Assembly: GCA_964457625.1 (NCBI GenBank)
Contig: CAYWES010000001.1
Location: 17,725-81,724 of the forward strand
Origin: an uncultured Candidatus Saccharibacteria bacterium
Lineage (GTDB): Bacteria; Patescibacteriota; Minisyncoccia; Phycocordibacterales; UBA1550
Reading direction: 5' to 3'
Length of the DNA stretch: 64,000 bases
This document shows, in pieces, positions 2,477 through 59,677 of this stretch. Both the position numbers and the translations under genes were made by a program. A model generated the notes under the pieces. That model was not told where the DNA came from and ran no database searches. It saw only the letters and a program-made list of their open reading frames with translations. Numbering within the stretch: position 1 is the stretch's first letter; every line of letters starts with the position of its first letter.

Positions 2477-3642
2477 TCAGTTCTTTTTGTTTTGATTAAC
2501 CAAAATTTCGATTTGGTCTGCCAAAGCATTTTGTCCTTGTTTGATTTGGTCTACGAGGGCAATCTGTCCTTTGGGGATTTCTTTATTATCCCCGAGAACA
2601 TAGACGGCCTTTCCTTGTACACCGGCAACTCGAGCAACTTCCTCTCGGATTGCAAGCTCGGCAACATCGGCGTACTTGTGGAGTTGCTCCATCTTGAGCC
2701 GAGTTGCTTCTGCGGAAGCTTTTCCAACTACTTCAATGGCTTGCGCACGACGCTCTTCATAAGCGAGGTGAGCATCACCTTCCTTTGTTTTCTCGAGGAT
2801 CTTTGCTTCACCATCGCGCTCAGCTCTTGCCTTTGCGGTAAGAGAGTCTTTTACTTCCTTGCTTCCACCAGTGAGTTCAACCCTCACGATGTTGGCATTT
2901 ACGACTTTGACCCCGAGTCTGCCGATGAAACCATCTCCCAATTCATTCCCATTGAACTCTTCTCCATTTTCGTCGGTGATGATAGTTTCAACGGTATCAT
3001 TAGGGTCTTCCTTGTTTATAAGTACAAGATCCTCGAAGTCCTTACCTTTTACGAAAGGATTCATGAGAGCCTTGATCTCCGCTTCCAAGCGGAGAAACCA
3101 GTCTTTGGTTTTGAAGAGGGCAATCCAAGGGAATATAATCCTTACATGAATCACGATGTCAATCGTGACCTCCAGGTTATCCCTTGTTTCAAAGTCGTCG
3201 CAGCGGACAACGTACGCAACTTCCTTTAAGAAAAAGAAGTTTGTAGGTTCCTTCCGTCGGACATACTCCGTTTTTATGCTTTCCCCTTCCTTTGTATCTC
3301 TCATTTCCGCCCAGGTAAAGGAGTCTTCCCTGATTTTGAAGGGGGGAAGCCCAACCCAGTGCACTCCCATGACTTCACGCTGAAAATCAAGATACGCACC
3401 TTGAGCCTCGGCTGACTCGGGAACTACTTGCCATTCTCCATGGATTTGCTTTATTGCGAATTTTGCGGACCCGCAAACAAATCCTTTGAATGCATTTTCC
3501 CGGACAATTACTTGCCCGGTATTTTCTTTCGGAGTAGTGAATAGCCATTCTCTCCTCGCGAGGAGGAGTGGGCCGTATACAAACAATAGTCCTGATAAGA
3601 CCATTGCTATAAGAGTTACAACAATAAGAGTAATAAGCATAA
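2477..3642 (-). CDS. SPFH/band-7 (stomatin/flotillin-like) domain protein
   Basis: ATG at the complement of 3640-3642 with GAGGAGG RBS; N-terminal TM; SPFH-like core and a long Ala/Glu/Lys-rich coiled-coil tail (AKARAERDGEAKILEKTKEG...). Confidence 0.8.
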
Positions 3643-3766
3643 TACACCTCCTCGGTGTTTTGGTTGTTGGATTGATTGCCAAAGATCAGCAATTTCTAAG
3701 GATGATTGTATCAAATTTTATCAAAAAAGTCAAGGTTCCTCGTATGGTACACTCTCAAGTACCCGC

Positions 3767-45925: not shown

Positions 45926-48829
45926 ATGAAAGCATACGACCACAAGGATCTTGAGGGAAAATGGCAAAAAATCTGGGAGGAGACGGGAGTGTATCGCACG
46001 GATGATTCTTCTGAAAAACCAAAACAATTTATTCTCGATATGTTCCCGTATCCATCAGGAGAGGGTCTTCATGTGGGGCATCCTAAGGGATATATTGCGA
46101 CTGACATCTATGCACGCATGAAGCGTATGAGCGGGTTTAATGTACTCCATCCCATGGGGTGGGATGCGTTTGGTCTCCCCGCGGAACAGTTTGCGATTAA
46201 GCACAAAGTACATCCTCGTGTGGCGGTAGAAAAAAATGTTGCTCGCTACAAAGAGCAACTCTCTGTTATTGGTCTTGATTATGATTGGGCACGCGAGATA
46301 AATACGACAGATCCTGCCTTTTATAAGTGGACGCAGTGGATTTTTTTGAAACTGTTGGAAAAAGGTCTTGCCTATGAGTCATATGAACCGATTAACTGGT
46401 GCCCCACGTGTCAAACGGGTCTTGCTAACGAAGATCTTGATGGAGGGAAGTGTGAGCGATGTGATACTCCCGTCGAGAAAAAGCCCATGCGACAATGGGT
46501 ACTCAAAATTACGGAGTACGCAGACCGCATGCTCAAAGACCTTGATCTCCTTAATTGGCCGGACTCTATCAAGGAAGCCCAACGAAATTGGATTGGGAGG
46601 AGTGAAGGAGCGGAAATAGATTTCAATTTGGTATTCAAATTGCATCCAAAACATAACGATTGGCGCGACCCAAAAGACGAAAAACCTGCGCATATTACGG
46701 TATTCACCACGCGTCCCGATACGCTTTTTGGTGCGACATATCTGGTGCTTGCCCCTGAACATCCTTGGGTAGAGGCTTTGTGGAATACCGAACACGACGA
46801 CAGTGTGGGTAACAAAAGTGAAATAGAGGCATATGTGAAGCATGCCAGGGAAAAGACCGATATAGAACGTGCTGACGCGACGAAAGAAAAAACGGGTGTA
46901 AACGTTGAAGGAGTTGTTGCTCTTAATCCCGTGACGAAAGAAGAGATTCCAATATTTGTTGCGGATTATGTGCTTGGAGGGTACGGTACGGGTGCGGTGA
47001 TGGCTGTCCCGGCACATGACGAGCGAGACTTTCTTTTTGCTCAGAAATTTAGCCTGCCTTTCAGGGAGGTTGTCGTGCCTCATAGGGTTGATTATAAAAA
47101 TCCCCCCGTATCAGAAAAAGAAGTTGTTACACGAAAGAATATTCATGGTCTCGTGCGTAATCCAAAAACAGGCAAGATACTTTGTCTCAAGTGGAAAGAA
47201 CATCCTTGGACAACCCTTGTGGTGGGAGGAGTAGAGGATGGTGAGGATATTATTGAAGCGGCGCGGAGAGAAATTCTAGAAGAGACGGGATATGCACACC
47301 TCAGTGAGGGTCGCATCTTGGGAGGAGAAGTACGTGCCGACTACTTTGCAGCACACAAAGATCAAAATAGAATCGCGTACACTAGTCTTGTTGCATTTGA
47401 TCTTCTTGATGAAGAACAGCAAGACATCTCAGCGGACGAACAGAGTAAACATGAAGTCGTTTGGCTTGATGAGAAGGACGTCACAGTGGAATTGATGACC
47501 CACGCAGAAATGGACATCTGGCTTGAAAGAATGAATGGCGCGACGGGGGCATACACTCATTCAGGTGTTCTTGTGCATTCCGCACAATTTAATGGCAAAA
47601 GTTCTGAAGAGGCAAAAAAAGAGATTACAGAGTTCGCAGGTGGTCGTTGGGTGACAAAGTATCGTCTCAAGGAGTGGGTGTTTTCACGTCAGCGCTACTG
47701 GGGTGAGCCTATCCCGGTTATTCATTGTCCGAAGGATGGTGTTGTTCCCGTTCCCGAGAAGGAACTTCCCGTGCTCCTACCTGATGTGACTTCGTACGAA
47801 CCCACAGGAACGGGGGAGTCACCTCTTGCGGCGATTTCAGATTGGGTCAACACGACATGTCCGCAATGTGGTGGTCCGGGCACGCGCGAGACCAATACGA
47901 TGCCTCAGTGGGCGGGATCATCGTGGTATTACCTTCGTTTCATTGACCCAGAAAATAATGAGGCACTCATTGATCCGAAAAAAGAACATATATGGGATCC
48001 AGTTGACCTTTATGTGGGAGGCGATCATGCGGTGCGCCATCTTATCTACGCGCGTTTTTGGCATAAGTTTTTGTTTGACATAGATGTAGTCCACACTCTT
48101 GAGCCGTTTATGAGACTTGAGTTTCTCGGTTTTATTCTTGCTGAAGATGGTCGTAAAATGAGCAAGCGATGGGGAAATGTCATTAATCCCGATGATGTGG
48201 TAAAAACCTATGGTGCTGACACGCTCCGTCTCTATGAAATGTTCATGGGACCCTTTGAGCAAACTATCGCCTGGAATACCGAGAGTATCATTGGACCACG
48301 AAGGTTCCTTGAGCGTGTATGGCGTTTACGAGAGAATGTTTCATCTTCGGTAAAAGATACCGAAACTCTCGAGACGATTCTTCATAAAACAATCAAAAAA
48401 GTAACGGATGATATTGAAGGGTTTGCCTTTAATACCGCGATTTCTTCGCTCATGGTGCTTTCGAATGAAATGGAGCGTGCCAAAGAATTTTCTCCCCAAG
48501 CCTACGAGACATTCCTGAAACTCCTTGCCCCCTTCGCTCCTCATATTACCGAAGAACTTTGGCATGAATTGGGGCACGAGGACTCAATCCACCTTTCTTC
48601 ATGGCCTACCTACGATCCTCAAAAATGCATCGCTACAGAGGTAACAATTGCCATTCAGATAAATGGGAAGGTCCGCGACACTCTTGTTGTGGCGGCAGAT
48701 ATATCCGAAGACGAAGTTCTCCGTATTGCCCTTGAGCGCCCTCTTGTGTCCAAATGGATGGAAGGGAAGAAGCCCGCAAAAACGATCTTTGTTCCCGGGA
48801 AACTTCTCAGTATTGTCTTAGAAAAATAA
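45926..48829 (+). CDS. leuS: leucyl-tRNA synthetase carrying an inserted Nudix-hydrolase-like domain
   Basis: HIGH (HVGHPKGY), Zn motif CPTCQT..CERC, editing-domain block TTRPDTLFGATYLVLAPEHP...GTGAVMAVPAHDERDF, KMSKS (KMSKRWGN). An inserted block of about 150 aa contains the canonical Nudix box GGVEDGEDIIEAARREILEETGY. Confidence 0.9.
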   Translation: MKAYDHKDLEGKWQKIWEETGVYRTDDSSEKPKQFILDMFPYPSGEGLHVGHPKGYIATDIYARMKRMSGFNVLHPMGWDAFGLPAEQFAIKHKVHPRVAVEKNVARYKEQLSVIGLDYDWAREINTTDPAFYKWTQWIFLKLLEKGLAYESYEPINWCPTCQTGLANEDLDGGKCERCDTPVEKKPMRQWVLKITEYADRMLKDLDLLNWPDSIKEAQRNWIGRSEGAEIDFNLVFKLHPKHNDWRDPKDEKPAHITVFTTRPDTLFGATYLVLAPEHPWVEALWNTEHDDSVGNKSEIEAYVKHAREKTDIERADATKEKTGVNVEGVVALNPVTKEEIPIFVADYVLGGYGTGAVMAVPAHDERDFLFAQKFSLPFREVVVPHRVDYKNPPVSEKEVVTRKNIHGLVRNPKTGKILCLKWKEHPWTTLVVGGVEDGEDIIEAARREILEETGYAHLSEGRILGGEVRADYFAAHKDQNRIAYTSLVAFDLLDEEQQDISADEQSKHEVVWLDEKDVTVELMTHAEMDIWLERMNGATGAYTHSGVLVHSAQFNGKSSEEAKKEITEFAGGRWVTKYRLKEWVFSRQRYWGEPIPVIHCPKDGVVPVPEKELPVLLPDVTSYEPTGTGESPLAAISDWVNTTCPQCGGPGTRETNTMPQWAGSSWYYLRFIDPENNEALIDPKKEHIWDPVDLYVGGDHAVRHLIYARFWHKFLFDIDVVHTLEPFMRLEFLGFILAEDGRKMSKRWGNVINPDDVVKTYGADTLRLYEMFMGPFEQTIAWNTESIIGPRRFLERVWRLRENVSSSVKDTETLETILHKTIKKVTDDIEGFAFNTAISSLMVLSNEMERAKEFSPQAYETFLKLLAPFAPHITEELWHELGHEDSIHLSSWPTYDPQKCIATEVTIAIQINGKVRDTLVVAADISEDEVLRIALERPLVSKWMEGKKPAKTIFVPGKLLSIVLEK

Positions 48830-48964: not shown

Positions 48965-49996
48965 ATGTCAGCACTTACGTTTAAACCAAAGCAGTCTGTC
49001 AAACGCTTGCTTTCGGTATTGTCTCCCCGCGCGCTTGACGTCATTACCAAGCGATATGGCTTGAAGGATGATACCAACCGTATGACCCTTGAAGGAATCG
49101 GTGCCACCTATGATATTACACGCGAGCGCGTGCGCCAGATAGAAAATTTTGCATTGGCCACCATTAAAAAGTCAGATGTCTTTAAAAAAGAGTCTGCCGT
49201 ATTCAAAGAGCTTCACGATGTCATCGTTTCCATGGGGGGTGTCGTTTGTGAAGAGGATTTTCTCATGCACCTATCCCGTGATGAGAGTACTCAGAACCAT
49301 CTTTATTTTCTTCTTGTTCTTGGAGAGGAGTTTAAACGCGAAAAAGGAGACGAACATTTTAAACATCGTTGGATCGTCGATGACAAAACATCAATGCGTG
49401 TACATGATGCGCTCCGCAAACTTTTCGAATCTCTTTCCCACGAAGATCTCGTTCCCGAAGGAGAGATGGTTGAGTTGTTTATCAACCACTTGAAGGAAGT
49501 TGCCGATGGGTACAAGAATGAGGAAATCGTGAAGCGTTGGTTGTCCCTTTCAAAGACAATTGGGAAAAATCCACTTGGTGAATGGGGCATGTCTCGCTCA
49601 CACAATGTAAACGCGCGCGGTATGAGGGACTATGCATATCTCGTGATTAAAAAACACGGTTCCCCGATGCACTTTACAGAGGTTACCAAAGCAATTACAC
49701 AGACCTTCAACAAGAAGGCTCACGTTGCCACCTGTCACAACGAACTCATCAAGGATAGCCGTTTTGTGCTCGTGGGGCGAGGTCTCTACGCACTCTCCTC
49801 ATGGGGGTATGAACGAGGAGTAGTTAAGGACGTGATTGCAAAGATTCTCAAAGAAGAAGGCCCTCTCACCAAAAAAGAAATCATTGACCGCGTCCTCAAA
49901 GAACGATACGTCAAAGAAAATACCGTGTTTGTAAATCTTCAAGACACAAAACTCTTTAAGAAATCAAAAGACAACAAATACTCACTTGCCTCATAA
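48965..49996 (+). CDS. two-HTH protein: N-terminal sigma-70 region-4-like HTH plus C-terminal HARE-HTH-like domain
   Basis: N-terminus LSPRALDVITKRYGL..TLEGIGATYDITRERVRQIENFAL (sigma r4). C-terminal part MHFTEVTKAI...DSRFVLVGRGLYALSSWGY resembles the HARE-HTH (RNA pol delta N-terminal-like) signature. Confidence 0.6.
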   Translation: MSALTFKPKQSVKRLLSVLSPRALDVITKRYGLKDDTNRMTLEGIGATYDITRERVRQIENFALATIKKSDVFKKESAVFKELHDVIVSMGGVVCEEDFLMHLSRDESTQNHLYFLLVLGEEFKREKGDEHFKHRWIVDDKTSMRVHDALRKLFESLSHEDLVPEGEMVELFINHLKEVADGYKNEEIVKRWLSLSKTIGKNPLGEWGMSRSHNVNARGMRDYAYLVIKKHGSPMHFTEVTKAITQTFNKKAHVATCHNELIKDSRFVLVGRGLYALSSWGYERGVVKDVIAKILKEEGPLTKKEIIDRVLKERYVKENTVFVNLQDTKLFKKSKDNKYSLAS

Positions 49997-50067: not shown

Positions 50068-51369
50068 ATGGAATTTCTAGAGCACATAGGGCTCATCGAT
50101 CTCTATACGGGGGTCATTGGGTACCTCATTATTTTTATTAAGTGGGCGCCATTTTGGGTGCCCCTGGTACTCCTTGCGTATCTTTGGGGGTTGTGGATGC
50201 ATTATGTCCAGGCGAAGTGGCAGACTGAGGTGAAGTGGATCATGCTTGAGTTGAAGCTTCCCAAAGAGACTCATAAAGGTCCTCTTGCCATGGAGCTTGT
50301 GTTGAATGCGCTCTATCAGACAGGTTCGGGTATCTGGTATGACAAAAAAGTAAAAGGACGCGTCAAGGATAGATTTTCCCTAGAGATGGTTTCTCTGGAA
50401 GGTCAAGTAAAATTTTTTATTCGTACACCCGCCGTACACAAAAATGTAATTGAGGCTCAGCTCTATGCGCAATATCCTGACATAGAGATTTTTGAAGTTC
50501 CCGATTACACGCGCTATGTCGACTACCGAGGAAGAGAAGGAGACTGGTCGTGTGTCGGTATGGATTTTGGCCTCGGAAAGGAAGATGCCTATCCTATAAA
50601 AACGTACATCGATTATGGTCTCGATAAAGAAGGTGTCGACGAGGAATACAAAATTGACCCCCTAAGCTCTGTTATTGAGTATCTTGGATCAGTAGGAAAG
50701 GGCGAGCAAGTCTGGATTCAGATTATTGTACAGGCCGCCACGAAGGCTCACCACTATCCGCACAAAAAGGATGGGTCAATGGGGGACTGGAAGAGTGAGG
50801 GAGAAGCGTTGGTCGACAAACTTACTCAGCGCAAAGAAGAACGCGATGAAGAAGGGAAGGGCGGTCCGCGCACACAGCATATGACAAAGGGTGAGCAAGA
50901 AATTGTCGCTGCCATTGAGCGCAATATCAGCAAGTTTGGTTTTGAGTGCGGGGTCCGAGCGCTCTATGTTTGCAAACGTGATCGTTTTAATCCTTCAAAT
51001 CTCAAGGCAATCGGAGGGCTTTGGCGCGGGTTTAGTACCGCAAATCTAAATGAGTTTAAGTCTACCATTCAGACCTTCGGTGTTGATGCATGGTGGCAAG
51101 ATTATAAAGATGTTCGTATCACGAGCTATCGCAAAGCACAGTTTGAGGCATTCAAGCGTCGGGAGTTTTCATTTGAAGATCAGGTGAGATGGGTTGCAAA
51201 CATCCCCTCTGCCTCGCCAATGGTGATTACGCCGTTCAAACACCCTTTTGTATTGAGCTCTGAAGAGCTTGCAACGATATTCCATCTACCGGGAGGAGTG
51301 GTACAGACGCCAACGTTTGGCCGTCTCTCTTCACGCAAGAGCGAAGCTCCTACCAACTTGCCAATCTAA
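50068..51369 (+). CDS. hypothetical protein with N-terminal TM segment (433 aa)
   Basis: Long ORF with coherent codon usage; no recognisable motif; the ATG lies 7 nt after a TACAAT box. Confidence 0.55.
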   Translation: MEFLEHIGLIDLYTGVIGYLIIFIKWAPFWVPLVLLAYLWGLWMHYVQAKWQTEVKWIMLELKLPKETHKGPLAMELVLNALYQTGSGIWYDKKVKGRVKDRFSLEMVSLEGQVKFFIRTPAVHKNVIEAQLYAQYPDIEIFEVPDYTRYVDYRGREGDWSCVGMDFGLGKEDAYPIKTYIDYGLDKEGVDEEYKIDPLSSVIEYLGSVGKGEQVWIQIIVQAATKAHHYPHKKDGSMGDWKSEGEALVDKLTQRKEERDEEGKGGPRTQHMTKGEQEIVAAIERNISKFGFECGVRALYVCKRDRFNPSNLKAIGGLWRGFSTANLNEFKSTIQTFGVDAWWQDYKDVRITSYRKAQFEAFKRREFSFEDQVRWVANIPSASPMVITPFKHPFVLSSEELATIFHLPGGVVQTPTFGRLSSRKSEAPTNLPI

Positions 51370-53556: not shown

Positions 53557-54417
53557 ATGGTACAAAAAGATTCTCAAAATATTCCCTGGGTTATAAAGAC
53601 ATCGGGTGTCCGTGAGCAGTTTTCTGTAGCCAAGCTCCGTCGCTCACTTGAACGCTCGGGAGCAGACGAAGCGACTGTTCAGCAAATTCTTGACCATATT
53701 CTCCCGGAAGTTACTGATGGTACGAGGACCTCGCTCATTTACAAACACGCATTCGCATTACTCAAAAAGAATCTGTATCCTGCGGCAGTCCGATATAGTC
53801 TCCGCAAGGCGGTTATGGAACTCGGTCCGAGTGGGTTTCCTTTTGAAATCTATGTCTCAGAAGTTCTCCGCCGCAAAGGGTACACTGCCGAGACAGGCGT
53901 GGTGCTTCCGGGGTTCTGTGTCCTTCATGAGGTTGATATTTACCTCCGAAAAAATGACAAACATATTTTTGCCGAGTGTAAATTTCACAATCAGCAAGGG
54001 ATTAAGGTTGATATAAAAGTGGCACTCTATATTCACGCTCGATTCCTTGATCTTAAAAAAGGTCATGAATCAAAAGAGCAATCGGGAACACGGGATATCC
54101 ACGAAGGGTGGCTCATTACTAACACAAAGATGAGTGCGGATGCGATTCAATATGCAAATTGCGTGGGACTCCGCCTCCTTGCGTGGGATTATCCCGAGAA
54201 AGGAAATCTCCAAGATCTTATTTTAGAGACGGGTGTGCATCCTTTGACGTTCCTTTCTTCGCTTTCATCGCGTAACAAAACAGATCTCCTCGCCAAGGGG
54301 ATCGTTATGTGTCGAGAGCTCAAAGAGAATGAGCAAGCCCTTCGTGATATTGGATTTTCCGAAGGAAAGATAAAAGGCGTCCTCCGTGAGGCAGATCGCG
54401 TATGCCAAGAGTTTTAA
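53557..54417 (+). CDS. ATP-cone domain fused to a PD-(D/E)xK restriction-endonuclease-like (Mrr_cat-type) domain
   Basis: N-terminus VIKTSGVREQFSVAKLRRSLERSGAD.. (ATP-cone). Central FEIYVSEVLRRKGY...LHEVDIYL...AECKF (E..D..ExK nuclease core). Confidence 0.6.
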   Translation: MVQKDSQNIPWVIKTSGVREQFSVAKLRRSLERSGADEATVQQILDHILPEVTDGTRTSLIYKHAFALLKKNLYPAAVRYSLRKAVMELGPSGFPFEIYVSEVLRRKGYTAETGVVLPGFCVLHEVDIYLRKNDKHIFAECKFHNQQGIKVDIKVALYIHARFLDLKKGHESKEQSGTRDIHEGWLITNTKMSADAIQYANCVGLRLLAWDYPEKGNLQDLILETGVHPLTFLSSLSSRNKTDLLAKGIVMCRELKENEQALRDIGFSEGKIKGVLREADRVCQEF

Positions 54418-54970: not shown

Positions 54971-56758
54971 ATGAATTCACGAGAATTACGATCACGATTT
55001 TTAAAATTTTTTGAGAAGAGGGGACATGCCGTCATCCCTTCAGCTTCTTTGGTACCGGAGAATGACCCTTCGGTGCTTTTTAATACTGCGGGAATGCAAC
55101 CTCTCGTCCCGTATCTTTTGGGAGCACCGCATCCGGATGGCACGCGCCTCGTGAATGCACAAAAGTGTGTTCGCACGCAAGATATCGACGAGATTGGCGA
55201 CAGCACCCATGCCACATTTTTTGAAATGCTTGGAAATTGGTCTCTTGGAGATTATTTCAAAGAGGATGCGCTTCGCTGGAGCTTTGAATTCCTCACTTCA
55301 AAAGAAGAGGGGCTCGGGCTTGATCCTCGTCGTCTGTATGTGACGGTATTTGCGGGTGATGAAAACGCTCCTCGCGATGAAGAATCAGCGACCATCTGGA
55401 GAAGTATCTTTGTGGAGCACAACATTCCGGGAGAGCGTATCTATTTCCTCAGCGCAAAATCTAATTGGTGGAGCCCCGGAGACAATGGACCATGTGGGCC
55501 CGACTCAGAAATGTTTTATGATGTGAGCGGAAAGCACACCGAAGGAATGACACTTGAAGAGTACCTCGCTGCTGATAACGCACAGGATGTGGTTGAGATC
55601 TGGAACGACGTATTCATGGAATACAAAAAAGAGAACGGTGTTGTCGTCGGGAAGCTCAGCCGAAAGAATGTCGATACGGGTTCGGGACTTGAGCGCGTAC
55701 TCATGACGGTGCAGGGCAAGGATAATATTTTTGATACGGATTTATTTACGCCCATTTTTGACGCCATTCGTGCACATACGGGCGGAGAAATTCGCGATAT
55801 GCGTGCGGCACGTATTGTTGCGGATCACATGCGCGCGTCAACGATGATGATTACGGATGGAGTGCGTCCTTCAAACACGGATCAAGGATATATCGTGCGC
55901 AGGCTTTTGCGTCGCGCGGTGCGATACGCTGATCTCTTGGGACTCCCTCCGCATACACTCTCCAAGATTGTAGAGGTCGTAGTCTCAATATATGATGAGG
56001 CATACCCGGAAGTCTCTGTTCGAAAAAAAGAGACCCAAGAAGCGATTCAGAAAGAAGAGGAGAAGTTTAGAAAAACACTCGAGCGAGGAATGAAAGAGTT
56101 TGCGCGCCTTGCTGAAGAAGGAGCTATTTCTGCCGAGGGAGCATTTCAACTTTTTTCCACGCATGGCTTCCCGCTTGAAATGACTGAGGAGCTCGCCTCT
56201 GAGCGGGGAATTGTGGTAGATAGAGAAGGATTTCAAGAAGCGTTCAAAAAGCACCAAGAGCTTTCTCGCGCAGGAGCTGAACAGAAGTTCAAAGGAGGCC
56301 TTGCTGATACAAGTGTTATGTCGACACGGTATCACACTACGACACATCTTCTCCATCAGGCACTCCGCACAGTCCTTGGAGAAGGAGCAATACAGAAGGG
56401 TTCAAATATTACCGCAGAGCGCTTGAGGTTTGACTTTGCTCATGGTGCAAAAATGACCGATGAAGAAAAGCGTGCCGTTGAAGATTTGGTGAATAAAAAG
56501 ATTTCAGAGGCGCTTCCAGTCTTTTATGAGGATATATCTTTCGAAGAAGCACAAAAACGTGGGGCGATAGGGCTCTTTGGTGAAAAATACGGAGATACCG
56601 TACGCGTATATCAAGTGGGGGAGGGAGATTCTCGGTACAGTCTTGAGTTTTGTGGAGGACCTCATGTGGAAAACACAAGCGAGCTCGGTCACTTCAAGAT
56701 TGTAAAAGAAGAGGCCGTTGCCCAAGGAGTTCGTCGTATAAAAGCGGTACTTGAATAA
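54971..56758 (+). CDS. alaS: alanyl-tRNA synthetase (truncated form lacking the C-terminal C-Ala domain)
   Basis: Class II catalytic core, editing-domain HxxxH (HTTTHLLHQAL) and CGGPHV; 595 aa. Confidence 0.9.
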   Translation: MNSRELRSRFLKFFEKRGHAVIPSASLVPENDPSVLFNTAGMQPLVPYLLGAPHPDGTRLVNAQKCVRTQDIDEIGDSTHATFFEMLGNWSLGDYFKEDALRWSFEFLTSKEEGLGLDPRRLYVTVFAGDENAPRDEESATIWRSIFVEHNIPGERIYFLSAKSNWWSPGDNGPCGPDSEMFYDVSGKHTEGMTLEEYLAADNAQDVVEIWNDVFMEYKKENGVVVGKLSRKNVDTGSGLERVLMTVQGKDNIFDTDLFTPIFDAIRAHTGGEIRDMRAARIVADHMRASTMMITDGVRPSNTDQGYIVRRLLRRAVRYADLLGLPPHTLSKIVEVVVSIYDEAYPEVSVRKKETQEAIQKEEEKFRKTLERGMKEFARLAEEGAISAEGAFQLFSTHGFPLEMTEELASERGIVVDREGFQEAFKKHQELSRAGAEQKFKGGLADTSVMSTRYHTTTHLLHQALRTVLGEGAIQKGSNITAERLRFDFAHGAKMTDEEKRAVEDLVNKKISEALPVFYEDISFEEAQKRGAIGLFGEKYGDTVRVYQVGEGDSRYSLEFCGGPHVENTSELGHFKIVKEEAVAQGVRRIKAVLE

Positions 56759-56770
56759 TTCTCTTTAGGG

Positions 56771-56810
56771 AAAAGGGGCGATGCTGCTTTTCAGCATCGC
56801 CCCTTTTCCC
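56771..56810 (+). terminator. terminator after alaS
   Basis: AAAAGGGGCGATGCTG-CTTTT-CAGCATCGCCCCTTTT. Confidence 0.85.
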
Positions 56811-56848
56811 TTGTTCCTCCGCACCAGAAAAGATATACTGATAGAGTA

Positions 56849-58030
56849 ATGGCATTTTCTTTTTCATTGCGTTCAAAACATAAAGAAAAAACTATTCTCG
56901 TCGTTGATATTGGTTCAGCGAGTGTGGGTGTTGCGCTCGTCGCTCTTTCTCCTAAAAAAAATCCCCACATCCTTCTTTCAGAGAGGGAAGAGATTCCTTC
57001 CCAACCCGAGCTTTCCGCCCCAAAACTCCGACGTGCTATGGAGGGTGCGTTGGGGCGAGCCTTGCGAACTATTGGGAAAAACCTCAGGAAGCATCATTAT
57101 TCTCTCCCTGCGCGTGTTGTGTGTACGCTTTCCGCGCCGTGGTCTCTCGAAAAAACACGCCACATTATTACCGAATCCGAATCCCTCTTTGTGGTCACAG
57201 AACGCATGGTCGATGATATCTTAGAAGTAGATATGGGGAATCTCAAACAGGAGCTTTCCGGTACTCTGCCCACAGAAGATATTTTTGTCTTTGAGCGCCG
57301 CGTGTTGGGAGCTTCGCTTGATGGGTATCAAGTGAGCTCTCCCTTTGGACGCAAAACAACACGCCTCGACACCATAGCGCTTTTCGGAGTGTCTTCGAAA
57401 AAGGTTATGGATGGGATTGTCTCTTATATTGGGAGAGTATTTCATACGAAACAGATAGAGTGGAGCTCTTTTTCTCTTGCCTCGTTCAGTGCGATACGAG
57501 ATATTTTTCCTCACGAAAAAGATTTTCTTCTCCTCGATATTACAGGGGAGGCGACCACGGTGTCTCTTATCAAAAACGACCTTTTAGACCAAAGCCTCTT
57601 CTTCCCTCGGGGTAGAAATACGCTTATTCGAGAACTTTCTCTAGGAATGAATGTTCCCCATGAAGCGGCTGGAAGCCTGTTCAAAATGTATCTTCGTGGT
57701 ACACTAAATGAGCAGAAGCATGAACAGGTAAAGCGTATTTTGAAAGAATCGAGCCAAGGGTGGGTGAGTCGTCTTGAAAAGACGCTCACGGCGCTCCACA
57801 AGGAAGGAAACCTTCCCCACACGGTGTTTTTTAACGCAGACAAAGAAGTAGCTCAGTTCTACCATGAGATATTGAGCGAAATTGGTACGGGGTTTGGGGG
57901 AGCGTTCTTTTTCCCTCGATATGTGGACCCACAAGTGTTTCGAGGATTTATAACATCAGAAGAAGGTATATCTCGCGATCCATTTTTGGTCATCGGAGCA
58001 TTATTAGCAAGTAAATTGAATACACAATAA
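56849..58030 (+). CDS. actin-fold (ASKHA) ATPase-like protein, FtsA/PilM-like
   Basis: Phosphate-1-like ILVVDIGSASVGVAL and phosphate-2-like LLLDITGEATTVSLI; C-terminal amphipathic tail. Confidence 0.5.
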   Translation: MAFSFSLRSKHKEKTILVVDIGSASVGVALVALSPKKNPHILLSEREEIPSQPELSAPKLRRAMEGALGRALRTIGKNLRKHHYSLPARVVCTLSAPWSLEKTRHIITESESLFVVTERMVDDILEVDMGNLKQELSGTLPTEDIFVFERRVLGASLDGYQVSSPFGRKTTRLDTIALFGVSSKKVMDGIVSYIGRVFHTKQIEWSSFSLASFSAIRDIFPHEKDFLLLDITGEATTVSLIKNDLLDQSLFFPRGRNTLIRELSLGMNVPHEAAGSLFKMYLRGTLNEQKHEQVKRILKESSQGWVSRLEKTLTALHKEGNLPHTVFFNADKEVAQFYHEILSEIGTGFGGAFFFPRYVDPQVFRGFITSEEGISRDPFLVIGALLASKLNTQ

Positions 58031-58037
58031 TATCACC

Positions 58038-59411
58038 ATGGATAACATCAAGCGAAAAGCAACAGCACATAAAAGTGCCCCTAGCCCTGAACACAGCACG
58101 ACACATCATCGTGTACCCCACAAAAATGATTCGCATGACGGTGCAGACAAGGTTTCTCCGCATGATCGTATTCAAAGCAGCCCCTTTTTCCAAAAGAGCT
58201 CCTCTCCTGTTTCCGTCGTTCCTCCTGTTCGTCACCATCGCGCAAAAAAGAAGAAAATCCCCAGCGGTAAAGTATTCTTCTTCTTTGTCCTCCTCGCTCT
58301 CTTGTTTGCAGGGGTATTTTTTGGGGCAGGGCGTTTTGCAAGCGCTACGGTCCGCCTCACGCCAGTCGTCGAGACTGCTCCTCTCGATAAAAATATAAGC
58401 GCTTCTCTTGAAGGAGAGGGTAGCGGACTTGCATTTCATGTAATGACGTTCTCGGAGGAGAAGATTAAAGATGTTCCTGCTACCATTGAACAAGATGTAC
58501 AACGGAAGGCATCAGGAACGATTGTCATCTACAATGCTCACAACGGAAACGCACAGCGACTTATCGTAAATACGCGCTTTGAAACTCCTGATGGAAAAAT
58601 ATTCCGTATCGGTGAATCTGTCGAGGTGCCGGGCGCAGTCATGTCCGAAGGCAAGGTGGTGACACCGGGCGCTCTTGAGGTGACGGTATATGCAGATGCT
58701 CCCGGAAGAGAATACAACATCGGTCTCTCAGACTTTACCATTCCTGGATTTAAGGGGGATCCGCGCTACACAACCTTCACCGCTCGCTCCAAGAGCGACA
58801 GTCCCATGACAGGAGGTTTTTCTGGGGTGGTCAAAGTTCCTTCTCCTGAAGCTATCGCTATCGCACAGAGAGAGTTAAAGGACGATCTTAAAATCCTCGC
58901 AATCGAGAAAGCTCGCGCGCAAGTTCCTGAAGGGACAATATTTTTCCCGGGAAGCGTACTCCTTAAATACGAAGAGATTCCTGTTGATTTCACAAACAAC
59001 GATAGAGCAGCTGTGGGTATCCGCGCAACAACATCCGTCTTTTTCTTCAATTCCAAAGACTTGGTAAGTATGTTGGCGTCCGAAGCACTTCCGCACTATG
59101 ACCCAAGTGCTTCTTTCTCGCTCCTTAAAAGAGAAAACCTTACGTTCACATTTCTTGATTCTGTTGAGCAGGTAGTCGTTGAAGATATCGACGATATTCG
59201 CTTCAACATACGAGGGGAGGGCGTATTTATAGGGCTCCTCAACGTCGAAGAAATGAGTAATACTCTTGCAGGGAAACAAAAAACCGCATTTGCTGAAATC
59301 GTCAACACCGACCCTCTCATCGAAAAAGCTGAACTCTCCATATTCCCTCCATGGCGCTCTGCGTTCCCTGAAGATTCTCGCAAAATTGCCATTGATATTA
59401 TTAATCAGTAG
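58038..59411 (+). CDS. bitopic membrane protein: basic His/Ser-rich cytoplasmic N-terminus, one TM, large external domain
   Basis: 457 aa; TM VFFFFVLLALLFAGVFFG; no known motif; immediately follows the actin-like gene. Confidence 0.5.
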   Translation: MDNIKRKATAHKSAPSPEHSTTHHRVPHKNDSHDGADKVSPHDRIQSSPFFQKSSSPVSVVPPVRHHRAKKKKIPSGKVFFFFVLLALLFAGVFFGAGRFASATVRLTPVVETAPLDKNISASLEGEGSGLAFHVMTFSEEKIKDVPATIEQDVQRKASGTIVIYNAHNGNAQRLIVNTRFETPDGKIFRIGESVEVPGAVMSEGKVVTPGALEVTVYADAPGREYNIGLSDFTIPGFKGDPRYTTFTARSKSDSPMTGGFSGVVKVPSPEAIAIAQRELKDDLKILAIEKARAQVPEGTIFFPGSVLLKYEEIPVDFTNNDRAAVGIRATTSVFFFNSKDLVSMLASEALPHYDPSASFSLLKRENLTFTFLDSVEQVVVEDIDDIRFNIRGEGVFIGLLNVEEMSNTLAGKQKTAFAEIVNTDPLIEKAELSIFPPWRSAFPEDSRKIAIDIINQ

Positions 59412-59421
59412 GTACCGTTGT

Positions 59422-59450
59422 TTGACGGCAGAAGAGAGATCTGGTATCAT
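59422..59450 (+). promoter_or_regulatory. sigma-70-type promoter for infA
   Basis: TTGACG, 17 nt, TGg-TATCAT; ATG 11 nt downstream. Confidence 0.55.
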
Positions 59451-59461
59451 CTAAGACCACA

Positions 59462-59677
59462 ATGGGAGAGTCAGAAAAAGAAGAGCTTATTCAAGGAGAA
59501 GTCATCGAGGCATTACCAAGCGCCATGTTTCGCGTGGAATTTGAAGATGGAGTAGTCTCTATCTGCTACCTTGCGGGTAAAATGCGTCTTCACAGGATTA
59601 AAGTTCTTATTGGTGACAAGGTTATGGTCAAAGTCGATCCCTATGGAGGCAAGGGGAGAATCCTTAAACGTCTCTAA
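59462..59677 (+). CDS. infA: translation initiation factor IF-1
   Basis: S1-like OB fold; GEVIEALPSAMFRVEFEDG..LAGKMR..IKVLIGDKV. Confidence 0.9.
   Translation: MGESEKEELIQGEVIEALPSAMFRVEFEDGVVSICYLAGKMRLHRIKVLIGDKVMVKVDPYGGKGRILKRL

Follow-up and report, generated by a model that had tools for sequence, protein, structure and literature searches.

A conserved gene pair of Parcubacteria predicted to encode a divergent FtsA/PilM-fold protein and a bitopic membrane partner

We studied two adjacent genes, called A and B here, in a 64-kb stretch of DNA (64,000 nucleotides of contig CAYWES010000001.1, referred to below as the window). An earlier note on the window had described them as an actin-fold ATPase and its bitopic membrane partner, and had compared them to FtsA and PilM. 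We propose that A and B constitute a two-gene envelope module of Parcubacteria, ultra-small bacteria of the Paceibacteria type, in the style of PilM-PilN or FtsA-FtsN, in which A docks on a cytoplasmic peptide of B; we give this proposal about an even chance of being right. The module is probably a housekeeping one, and the pair probably a membrane-spanning scaffold. An FtsA/PilM-type protein with a bitopic partner is a known arrangement, and what is new in this pair is the unprecedented Baseplate_J-like ectodomain of B together with the altered nucleotide site of A. Neither protein is a Pfam or NCBIfam family, and we found no description of the module in the literature on FtsA, PilM or baseplate J in Patescibacteria or Parcubacteria. 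The two genes are as follows.

56849..58030, + strand: gene A, an open reading frame (ORF) of 393 amino acids (aa), for a predicted divergent FtsA/PilM-fold actin-like (ASKHA) protein
58038..59411, + strand: gene B, an ORF of 457 aa, for an N-in bitopic membrane protein with a predicted Baseplate_J-like ectodomain

Both ORFs lie where the earlier note had placed them, with the start of B standing 8 nucleotides (nt) past the final base of the A stop codon, that is, across an intergenic gap of 7 nt. Both are real genes far beyond chance, with homologues at expectation values (E) of 1e-100 and better.

Fold, family and nucleotide site of A

The structure of A was modelled with AlphaFold2 (AF2) on 53 family members, the set to which the column counts below also refer (n = 53). 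The model had a predicted local distance difference test score (pLDDT) of 92 and a predicted template modelling score (pTM) of 0.89. A Foldseek search of the PDB placed P. aeruginosa PilM first (E 2e-21; top structures 5eoy, 5eox and 5eou, E 2e-21 to 2e-20), with FtsA of S. aureus, T. maritima, Vibrio and E. coli at E 1e-19 to 3e-20 and template modelling (TM) scores of 0.64–0.69 over about 400 columns. Entry 7q6i was also among the structures listed. The next fold classes, namely ParM, diol dehydratase reactivase, Ppx/GppA, EutJ and sugar kinases, followed 10 orders of magnitude behind PilM and FtsA, at E 1e-9 to 1e-10 and with query-normalised TM scores of at most 0.50. The earlier note had allowed that A might turn out to be Ppx/GppA (PF02541) or another non-cytoskeletal ASKHA enzyme. 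The fold ranking and the hidden Markov models (HMMs) ruled this out: Foldseek gave Ppx/GppA an E of about 4e-9 and TM scores of 0.33–0.37, against 1e-20 and 0.65 for FtsA/PilM, and the Ppx/GppA HMM found only weak matches, in 4 of the 53 relatives. We therefore place A with confidence in the FtsA/PilM branch of the actin fold, 1C subdomain included.

Profile comparisons pointed the same way. When the A family profile was compared to PDB sequences, M. xanthus PilM was the best match (1e-4) and several FtsA chains followed at 0.01–0.07. Aligned with hhalign to E. coli FtsA, the profile reached 89.9% probability and E 1.7e-6 over 242 columns that spanned phosphate 1, 1C and phosphate 2; there was no signal against E. 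coli HofM, a short and atypical PilM and for that reason an uninformative comparison. By the models of the two families themselves, A lies outside both. No Pfam family was matched by A, and TIGR01174, the NCBIfam model of FtsA, gave it E 0.065 and 12.3 bits, far under the cutoff of 175.85. PF14450 was matched weakly by 16 of the 53 relatives (best 9.4e-7). The PilM models PF11104 and TIGR01175 left A unmatched at E ≤ 1, and none of the 53 relatives matched PF11104 at E ≤ 0.01.

An exhaustive profile search recovered 3918 cluster representatives (50% identity) at E ≤ 1e-3 and 1942 at 1e-30. The A family is both large and discrete, and 3918 clusters are too few to hold the canonical FtsA and PilM families. 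For A and B alike, the source annotations say 'hypothetical protein', save for one relative that NCBI names 'cell division FtsA domain-containing protein'. The window is from a Patescibacteria/Parcubacteria genome, and all homologues come from Yonathbacteria, Nomurabacteria, Paceibacterota, Minisyncoccia and similar groups. The features of A that carry the argument are these.

56897..56935, + strand: phosphate-1 motif LVVDIGSASVGVA, residues 17-29; family consensus DIGSASVG.A
57131..57397, + strand: 1C subdomain, residues ~95-183, from the AF2 secondary structure; an FtsA/PilM-specific insertion
57524..57562, + strand: modified phosphate-2 motif FLLLDITGEATTV, residues 226-238; DIGGGT in canonical FtsA
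57824..57847, + strand: degenerate adenosine motif VFFNADKE, residues 326-333; family consensus FFTaDxD, LxGGG(A/S) in FtsA/PilM

The two phosphate-binding signatures quoted in the earlier note, ILVVDIGSASVGVAL and LLLDITGEATTV, are both present in A. Phosphate 1 is kept as DIGSAS, with D20 conserved in 51, G22 in 52 and S23 in all 53 members. Phosphate 2 reads DITGEAT and aligns to the DIGGGT of FtsA; here no member departs from G233 or E234, and D230 is found in 51 of 53. The adenosine motif has lost its Gly-Gly, the GGG of the known families being replaced by T-A-D (D331, 49/53). The 1C subdomain sits in domain 1 in place of 1B, and hhalign paired residues 90-183 of A with the 1C region of E. 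coli FtsA. Within it lies a conserved loop, KLNGY...P (N158, G159, Y160, P165), which together with LSSPW (W98 invariant) makes up the family-specific invariants of A.

An amphipathic C-terminus had also been claimed for A. The protein ends, at residue 393, in a conserved, hydrophobic helix that was modelled with high confidence (residues 378-392, consensus RDPFLvvEALlAxK) and has no linker ahead of it. Its hydrophobic moment is 0.16, compared to 0.57 for the membrane-targeting helix of E. coli FtsA. Its appearance is that of a core helix which closes the actin fold, and the claim is therefore unsupported. Analysis of the protein sequence found neither a transmembrane helix nor an amphipathic helix in A. 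At the other end, residues 1-13 (56849-56890) form a conserved peptide that is disordered in the model; it begins MAFSFF (MsLF or MgLF in distant members) and continues with basic residues. We considered this peptide as an MreB-like amphipathic helix and rejected the idea, its hydrophobic moment being only 0.17.

Topology and ectodomain of B

The AF2 model of B (pLDDT 84.7) showed a disordered tail (residues 1-75), a transmembrane helix (77-99) and a beta-rich ectodomain. The protein divides as follows.

58038..58082, + strand: conserved N-terminal peptide, residues 1-15, from alignments of N-termini; the window copy is MDNIKRKATAHKSAP
58083..58265, + strand: cytoplasmic linker, residues 16-76, rich in His, Ser, Lys and Pro, pLDDT <50, with the sub-motif RIxxxPFF
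58266..58334, + strand: single transmembrane helix, residues 77-99; Kyte-Doolittle maximum 2.7 at residue 79, helical in the model
58335..59408, + strand: extracytoplasmic, beta-rich ectodomain, residues 100-457, containing a GlxA/Baseplate_J-type barrel and the invariant motif DFTIPGFKGDPRY
58506..58769, + strand: the GlxA/Baseplate_J-type barrel, residues 157-244, the PF21110 region

The 76-residue tail contains 12 Ser, 10 Lys, 9 His and 9 Pro and carries a net charge of +9; past the membrane segment the net charge is −14 and there is no Cys. This charge asymmetry, combined with a single hydrophobic segment, fits an N-in bitopic topology, and the description of B as a single-pass protein with a His/Ser/Lys-rich tail and an external domain held up. 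The linker varies freely in length and sequence across the family, and the N-terminal peptide is conserved: M-D-G-I-x-R-K-x-M-x-D-V-x-V-P in close relatives and M-x-K-K-I-x-Q-D-I-x-P-P in distant ones, often followed by RSIRxIP. The motif was not found in other proteins of the window.

Searches with the ectodomain led to two families. PF21110 ('GlxA beta barrel'), the beta-barrel domain of Streptomyces GlxA, matched residues 157-244 at E 9e-5 and 23.5 bits, under its cutoff of 27, and was also matched by 28 of 51 B relatives. The model for phage 'baseplate wedge subunit', phrog_6, was matched by 20 of the 51 relatives (best 5e-7), and PF04865 (Baseplate_J) gave weak matches on distant relatives; both models represent contractile-tail wedge proteins of the gp6-gp47 type. 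The window B itself matched neither PF04865 nor any PHROG, and the B profile found nothing below E = 1 among PDB sequences. Foldseek supported the likeness to the GlxA barrel and Baseplate_J (probability 1.0, E 6e-6 to 1e-4), with a global TM score of only about 0.2, so that the domain arrangement differs. Conserved motifs of the ectodomain include NTR(L/F)E, YAD.PG.EYN, DFTIPGFKGDPRY and GGFSG. Pfam, PDB sequence and structure searches gave no POTRA or SPOR-like match. As modelled, the ectodomain is Baseplate_J/phage wedge- and GlxA-barrel-like, and is unlike PilN/PilO, FtsQ or FtsN.

Considered as a pair, A and B can be compared to PilM-PilN (PDB 2ych, 5eou), the alignment subcomplex of the type IV pilus. 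In both systems a cytoplasmic FtsA-like actin fold that includes a 1C-type subdomain and lacks its own membrane anchor is encoded directly before, and in the same order as, a bitopic N-in protein that consists of a short conserved N-terminal peptide, a linker, one transmembrane helix and an external part. A and B might thus be a divergent PilM-PilN(O) subcomplex of a type IV or competence pilus, a rival explanation that gains from the Foldseek and PDB sequence rankings, in both of which a PilM came first. Type IV pili are, moreover, common in bacteria of the candidate phyla radiation (CPR) (PMC8672522, PMC11809585). The same sources tell against the idea, since CPR genomes are reported to possess a recognisable PilM and PilO themselves (PMC8672522, PMC11809585).

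The proteins themselves also differ from the pilus pair. A fails the PilM models and has T-A-D where PilM has GGG; B, at 457 aa, has a Baseplate_J/GlxA-barrel ectodomain instead of the coiled coil and ferredoxin-like domain of PilN and PilO, and its N-terminal motif is unlike the INLLP of PilN. Binding of A to B, for its part, is a proposal. No pilB/C/T/N/O/D or pilin gene adjoins the pair in any annotated locus, where the context is instead one of alaS, infA and ribosomal proteins. The earlier note had tentatively linked A and B to pilin-like genes at the start of the window. Those genes (137-535 and 910-1335, both + strand) match PF18895 (T4SS_pilin), a VirB2/TrbC-like pilin that belongs to type IV secretion and not to type IV pili; at a distance of 55 kb, they have nothing that ties them to the pair. 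We consider a pilus subcomplex very unlikely. Of the module suggested earlier, a lineage-specific cytoskeletal or membrane module survives, and the pilus-assembly version is without genomic support. Likewise, the comparison to FtsA/PilM-like pairs stands for the fold of A and for a bitopic partner, and fails for the family models of A and for any PilN/PilO/FtsQ/FtsN-like character of B. The observation made in the earlier note was thus partly confirmed, and its interpretation partly supported.

GspL of the type II secretion system offers a further likeness, an actin-like cytoplasmic module coupled through one transmembrane helix to an external domain. It differs in being a single polypeptide, with a PilM-like domain fused to a PilN-like transmembrane and periplasmic part, and in its external fold. 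No fused A-B protein occurred among the relatives listed.

Conservation of the pair and the proposed mechanism

The CPR or Patescibacteria account for a large part of bacterial diversity and have a cell biology of which almost nothing is known. We surveyed one genome per GTDB species with 20 of the closer A sequences and obtained 48 A loci, all from Parcubacteria-type Patescibacteria. In 45 of these, tblastn found a B homologue immediately 3' of A, and the other three loci are cut by a contig edge. The earlier note had asked whether the partner is related in other genomes; it is the same B wherever the contig continues. The median A-B gap is 8 nt, alaS lies 5' and infA-rpsM lies 3' of the pair in most loci, and the arrangement is kept even where A is only 24–28% identical to the window A.

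These data bear on the explanation that B is what remains of a baseplate gene from a prophage or contractile injection system (CIS), A an unrelated neighbour, and their pairing without functional meaning. Its appeal lies in the similarity of B to baseplate wedge proteins, in sequence (phrog_6) and in structure. But the pair has stayed at a single housekeeping site in dozens of species and in thousands of sequence clusters, its genes a median of 8 nt apart, and B belongs to the cell, is anchored in the membrane and bears a conserved peptide on its cytoplasmic tail, features that set it apart from Baseplate_J and GlxA, as do its poor global superposition and its scores under the Pfam cutoffs. 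No sheath, tube, spike or other tail or CIS genes lie near it, all of its loci being housekeeping ones, and no B relatives were found among IMG/VR viral contigs. The conservation data effectively refute the relic explanation, and we give it almost no credence.

A search seeded with one of the most distant B proteins brought in wider contexts, in which several other arrangements were seen. Three of the loci carry longer B-like proteins.

L056, 6001-7620: long-N-domain B-like protein (P0453)
L059, 6001-7611: long-N-domain B-like protein (P0428)
L060, 5486-7291: long-N-domain B-like protein (P0433)

In L059 (from a Pacebacteria metagenome-assembled genome) and L060, the longer B stands upstream of infA and has a folded N-terminal domain of about 85 residues in place of the peptide. 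This cytoplasmic domain follows the pattern I.L.V..EITSV..K....I.LVIP..S.L..S..NLKLLK..A..LGK.I.IVT.D, is succeeded by an acidic and Lys-rich linker, and had no Pfam or PDB sequence match. Locus L056 reads alaS, a 419-aa FtsA-like protein, a 539-aa B-like protein, ruvX and mltG. Its FtsA-like protein retains the canonical motifs DIGGGTTD and CGGGS, passes PF14450 (72 bits, cutoff 31.8), scores 119 bits with TIGR01174, and aligns to the A profile at 98.7% probability and E 3e-16 over 342 columns (hhalign). In that alignment the F-F-T-a-D of A falls opposite L-L-C-G-G-G-S. At the other extreme, L061 (4792-5940) encodes a more degenerate A (hhalign E 1e-33), with NIESSS at phosphate 1 and ELGGEIT at phosphate 2; this loss of the catalytic-site signature suggests that some lineages, at least, can do without ATP hydrolysis. 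Because of these wider arrangements (L056–L061), the membrane protein upstream of infA would appear to have arisen earlier in the CPR and to be spread more widely there than A. A itself would be a partner derived from FtsA and fixed beside B in Parcubacteria, with a nucleotide site that is drifting from the canonical form. The descent of A is thereby connected to canonical FtsA-like proteins through a CPR protein of intermediate character that occupies the same place in the genome.

A closer tie to division must also be weighed. A could be the divisome FtsA of this lineage, highly diverged and away from ftsZ, with B a late-division analogue of FtsN or FtsQ that links the Z-ring to the wall. 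The 1C subdomain of FtsA is the docking site for the cytoplasmic N-terminal peptide of the bitopic FtsN, an interaction resembling the one we propose, and A likewise has 1C for 1B, a profile homologous to E. coli FtsA, and descent from FtsA-like proteins. The weak PF14450 matches of 16 of 53 relatives and the one NCBI name that mentions cell division fit as well, as do mltG and alr in the wider neighbourhood of the pair in the window and the adjoining ruvX-mltG in L056. Against this, A has no linker and no amphipathic membrane-targeting helix at its C-terminus, its phosphate-2 and adenosine motifs are modified, it stands at 12 bits against the 176-bit cutoff of TIGR01174, and the ectodomain of B is unrelated to SPOR or POTRA domains. 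A tblastn search with E. coli FtsZ found no ftsZ within 6 kb in 53 CPR loci and none in the window, so that A has no linkage to ftsZ or to the division and cell wall (dcw) cluster; that neither ftsZ nor pil genes lie in the window, and that infA comes next after B, agrees with the earlier note. A canonical FtsA is, furthermore, to be expected elsewhere in these genomes, because, according to a published survey, CPR ftsZ neighbourhoods retain their usual FtsA/FtsW/FtsQ dcw context (PMC9871819). We regard a divisome FtsA as possible, though on balance unlikely.

Our preferred reading remains the two-gene envelope module. In the mechanism that we propose, B would be anchored N-in by its one transmembrane helix, holding the ectodomain outside and the conserved peptide inside on a flexible, basic linker. 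A, without a membrane-targeting helix of its own, would be recruited to the membrane by docking on the N-terminal peptide of B. It may oligomerise there and in this way arrange or control the ectodomains that B displays outside the membrane, and would act as a scaffold or nucleotide sensor rather than as a fast ATPase. What the data show is the two folds, the motifs, the topology of B, the strict adjacency of the genes and the kinship of A with canonical FtsA-like proteins; the contact of A with B, any oligomers of A and the biological role are inferences. The conserved housekeeping synteny is what points to a possible role of the pair in the envelope, at the cell surface or in a division-related process.

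Four observations weigh against this mechanism. The loci L057 (4296-8075) and L058 (4194-7569) contain alaS, a shorter B of about 410 aa that starts MAKKIxDIxPP, and infA, that is, the B peptide is kept and no A gene lies within 6 kb; the peptide may bind something else, or its partner may be encoded elsewhere. The long-N-domain loci L059 and L060 have no A either. The window copy of the B peptide, MDNIKRKATAHKSAP, is itself partly degenerate relative to the family motif. Lastly, both phosphate-motif aspartates are kept in 51 of the 53 A members, and real ATPase or polymerisation activity is thus possible. (In L057 and L058 we also noted that rpoA is short, at 254-258 aa, and has no match to its C-terminal domain.)

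We also entertained a bolder version, which we think distinctly unlikely. According to this, the B family would be a CPR-wide core envelope protein fixed directly upstream of infA, exapted from a phage baseplate wedge protein and oligomeric, possibly ring-like, outside the membrane. In Parcubacteria, a pseudo-ATPase derived from FtsA would organise this structure from the cytoplasmic side, as a filament or oligomer. If true, this would amount to an unrecognised trans-envelope machine, serving for example in host attachment, in surface-layer anchoring or in a non-canonical division step of ultra-small episymbionts.

Thousands of sequence clusters keep the pair, in a housekeeping position that does not change, and no curated family includes either protein. 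Should the module proposed here be real, it would add a third branch to the FtsA/PilM strategy, in which an actin-fold protein of the cytoplasm is coupled to the envelope, and would be a case of a baseplate-wedge fold that serves the cell as a membrane protein. Even if the model proves wrong, the pair would remain a useful marker of Parcubacteria genome organisation.

Flanking features and other observations in the window

The immediate surroundings of the pair contain the following features.

54971..56758, + strand: alaS, an ORF for alanyl-tRNA synthetase of 595 aa, the conserved upstream neighbour of the pair
56767..56811, + strand: a perfect, GC-rich 20-bp hairpin between alaS and gene A, directly 3' of alaS
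59422..59450, + strand: a promoter-like site, TTGACG-17-TATCAT, with an extended -10 TG, in the interval between B and infA; 10 of 12 consensus matches
59462..59677, + strand: infA, the conserved downstream neighbour, followed by rpsM-rpsK-rpsD-rpoA-rplQ-rplM-rpsI

RNA folding gave the hairpin a free energy of −39.6 kcal/mol (z −7.8), and none of 200 shuffled sequences was equally stable. It forms a terminator-like boundary with no clean T-run, and was passed over by a simple terminator scan. The promoter-like site is weak evidence, because such sites were not more numerous in the region than in shuffled sequence. The alaS orthologues of related loci match the Pfam families tRNA-synt_2c and tRNA_SAD; the synthetase is 595 aa long in the window and 547-642 aa in relatives, and the usual bacterial enzyme is longer.

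Several genes elsewhere in the window deserve mention. The leucyl-tRNA synthetase (45926-48829, + strand, 967 aa) carries a NUDIX insert (PF00293, E 1.4e-12, residues 405-529) directly behind the editing domain, which is an unusual architecture. A 286-aa protein (53557-54417, + strand) is encoded between mnmA and an MgtC-like gene. In the same position after mnmA, three related loci (L002 4597-5451, L004 336-1172 and L005 606-1460) have a gene for 278-284 aa, with matches, mostly weak or faint, to an ATP-cone and an Mrr_cat-like nuclease. Two sizeable ORFs of 433 aa (50068-51369, + strand) and 401 aa (2477-3682, − strand) had no Pfam match, and one 343-aa protein (48965-49996, + strand) combines Sigma70 region 4 with a HARE-HTH domain.

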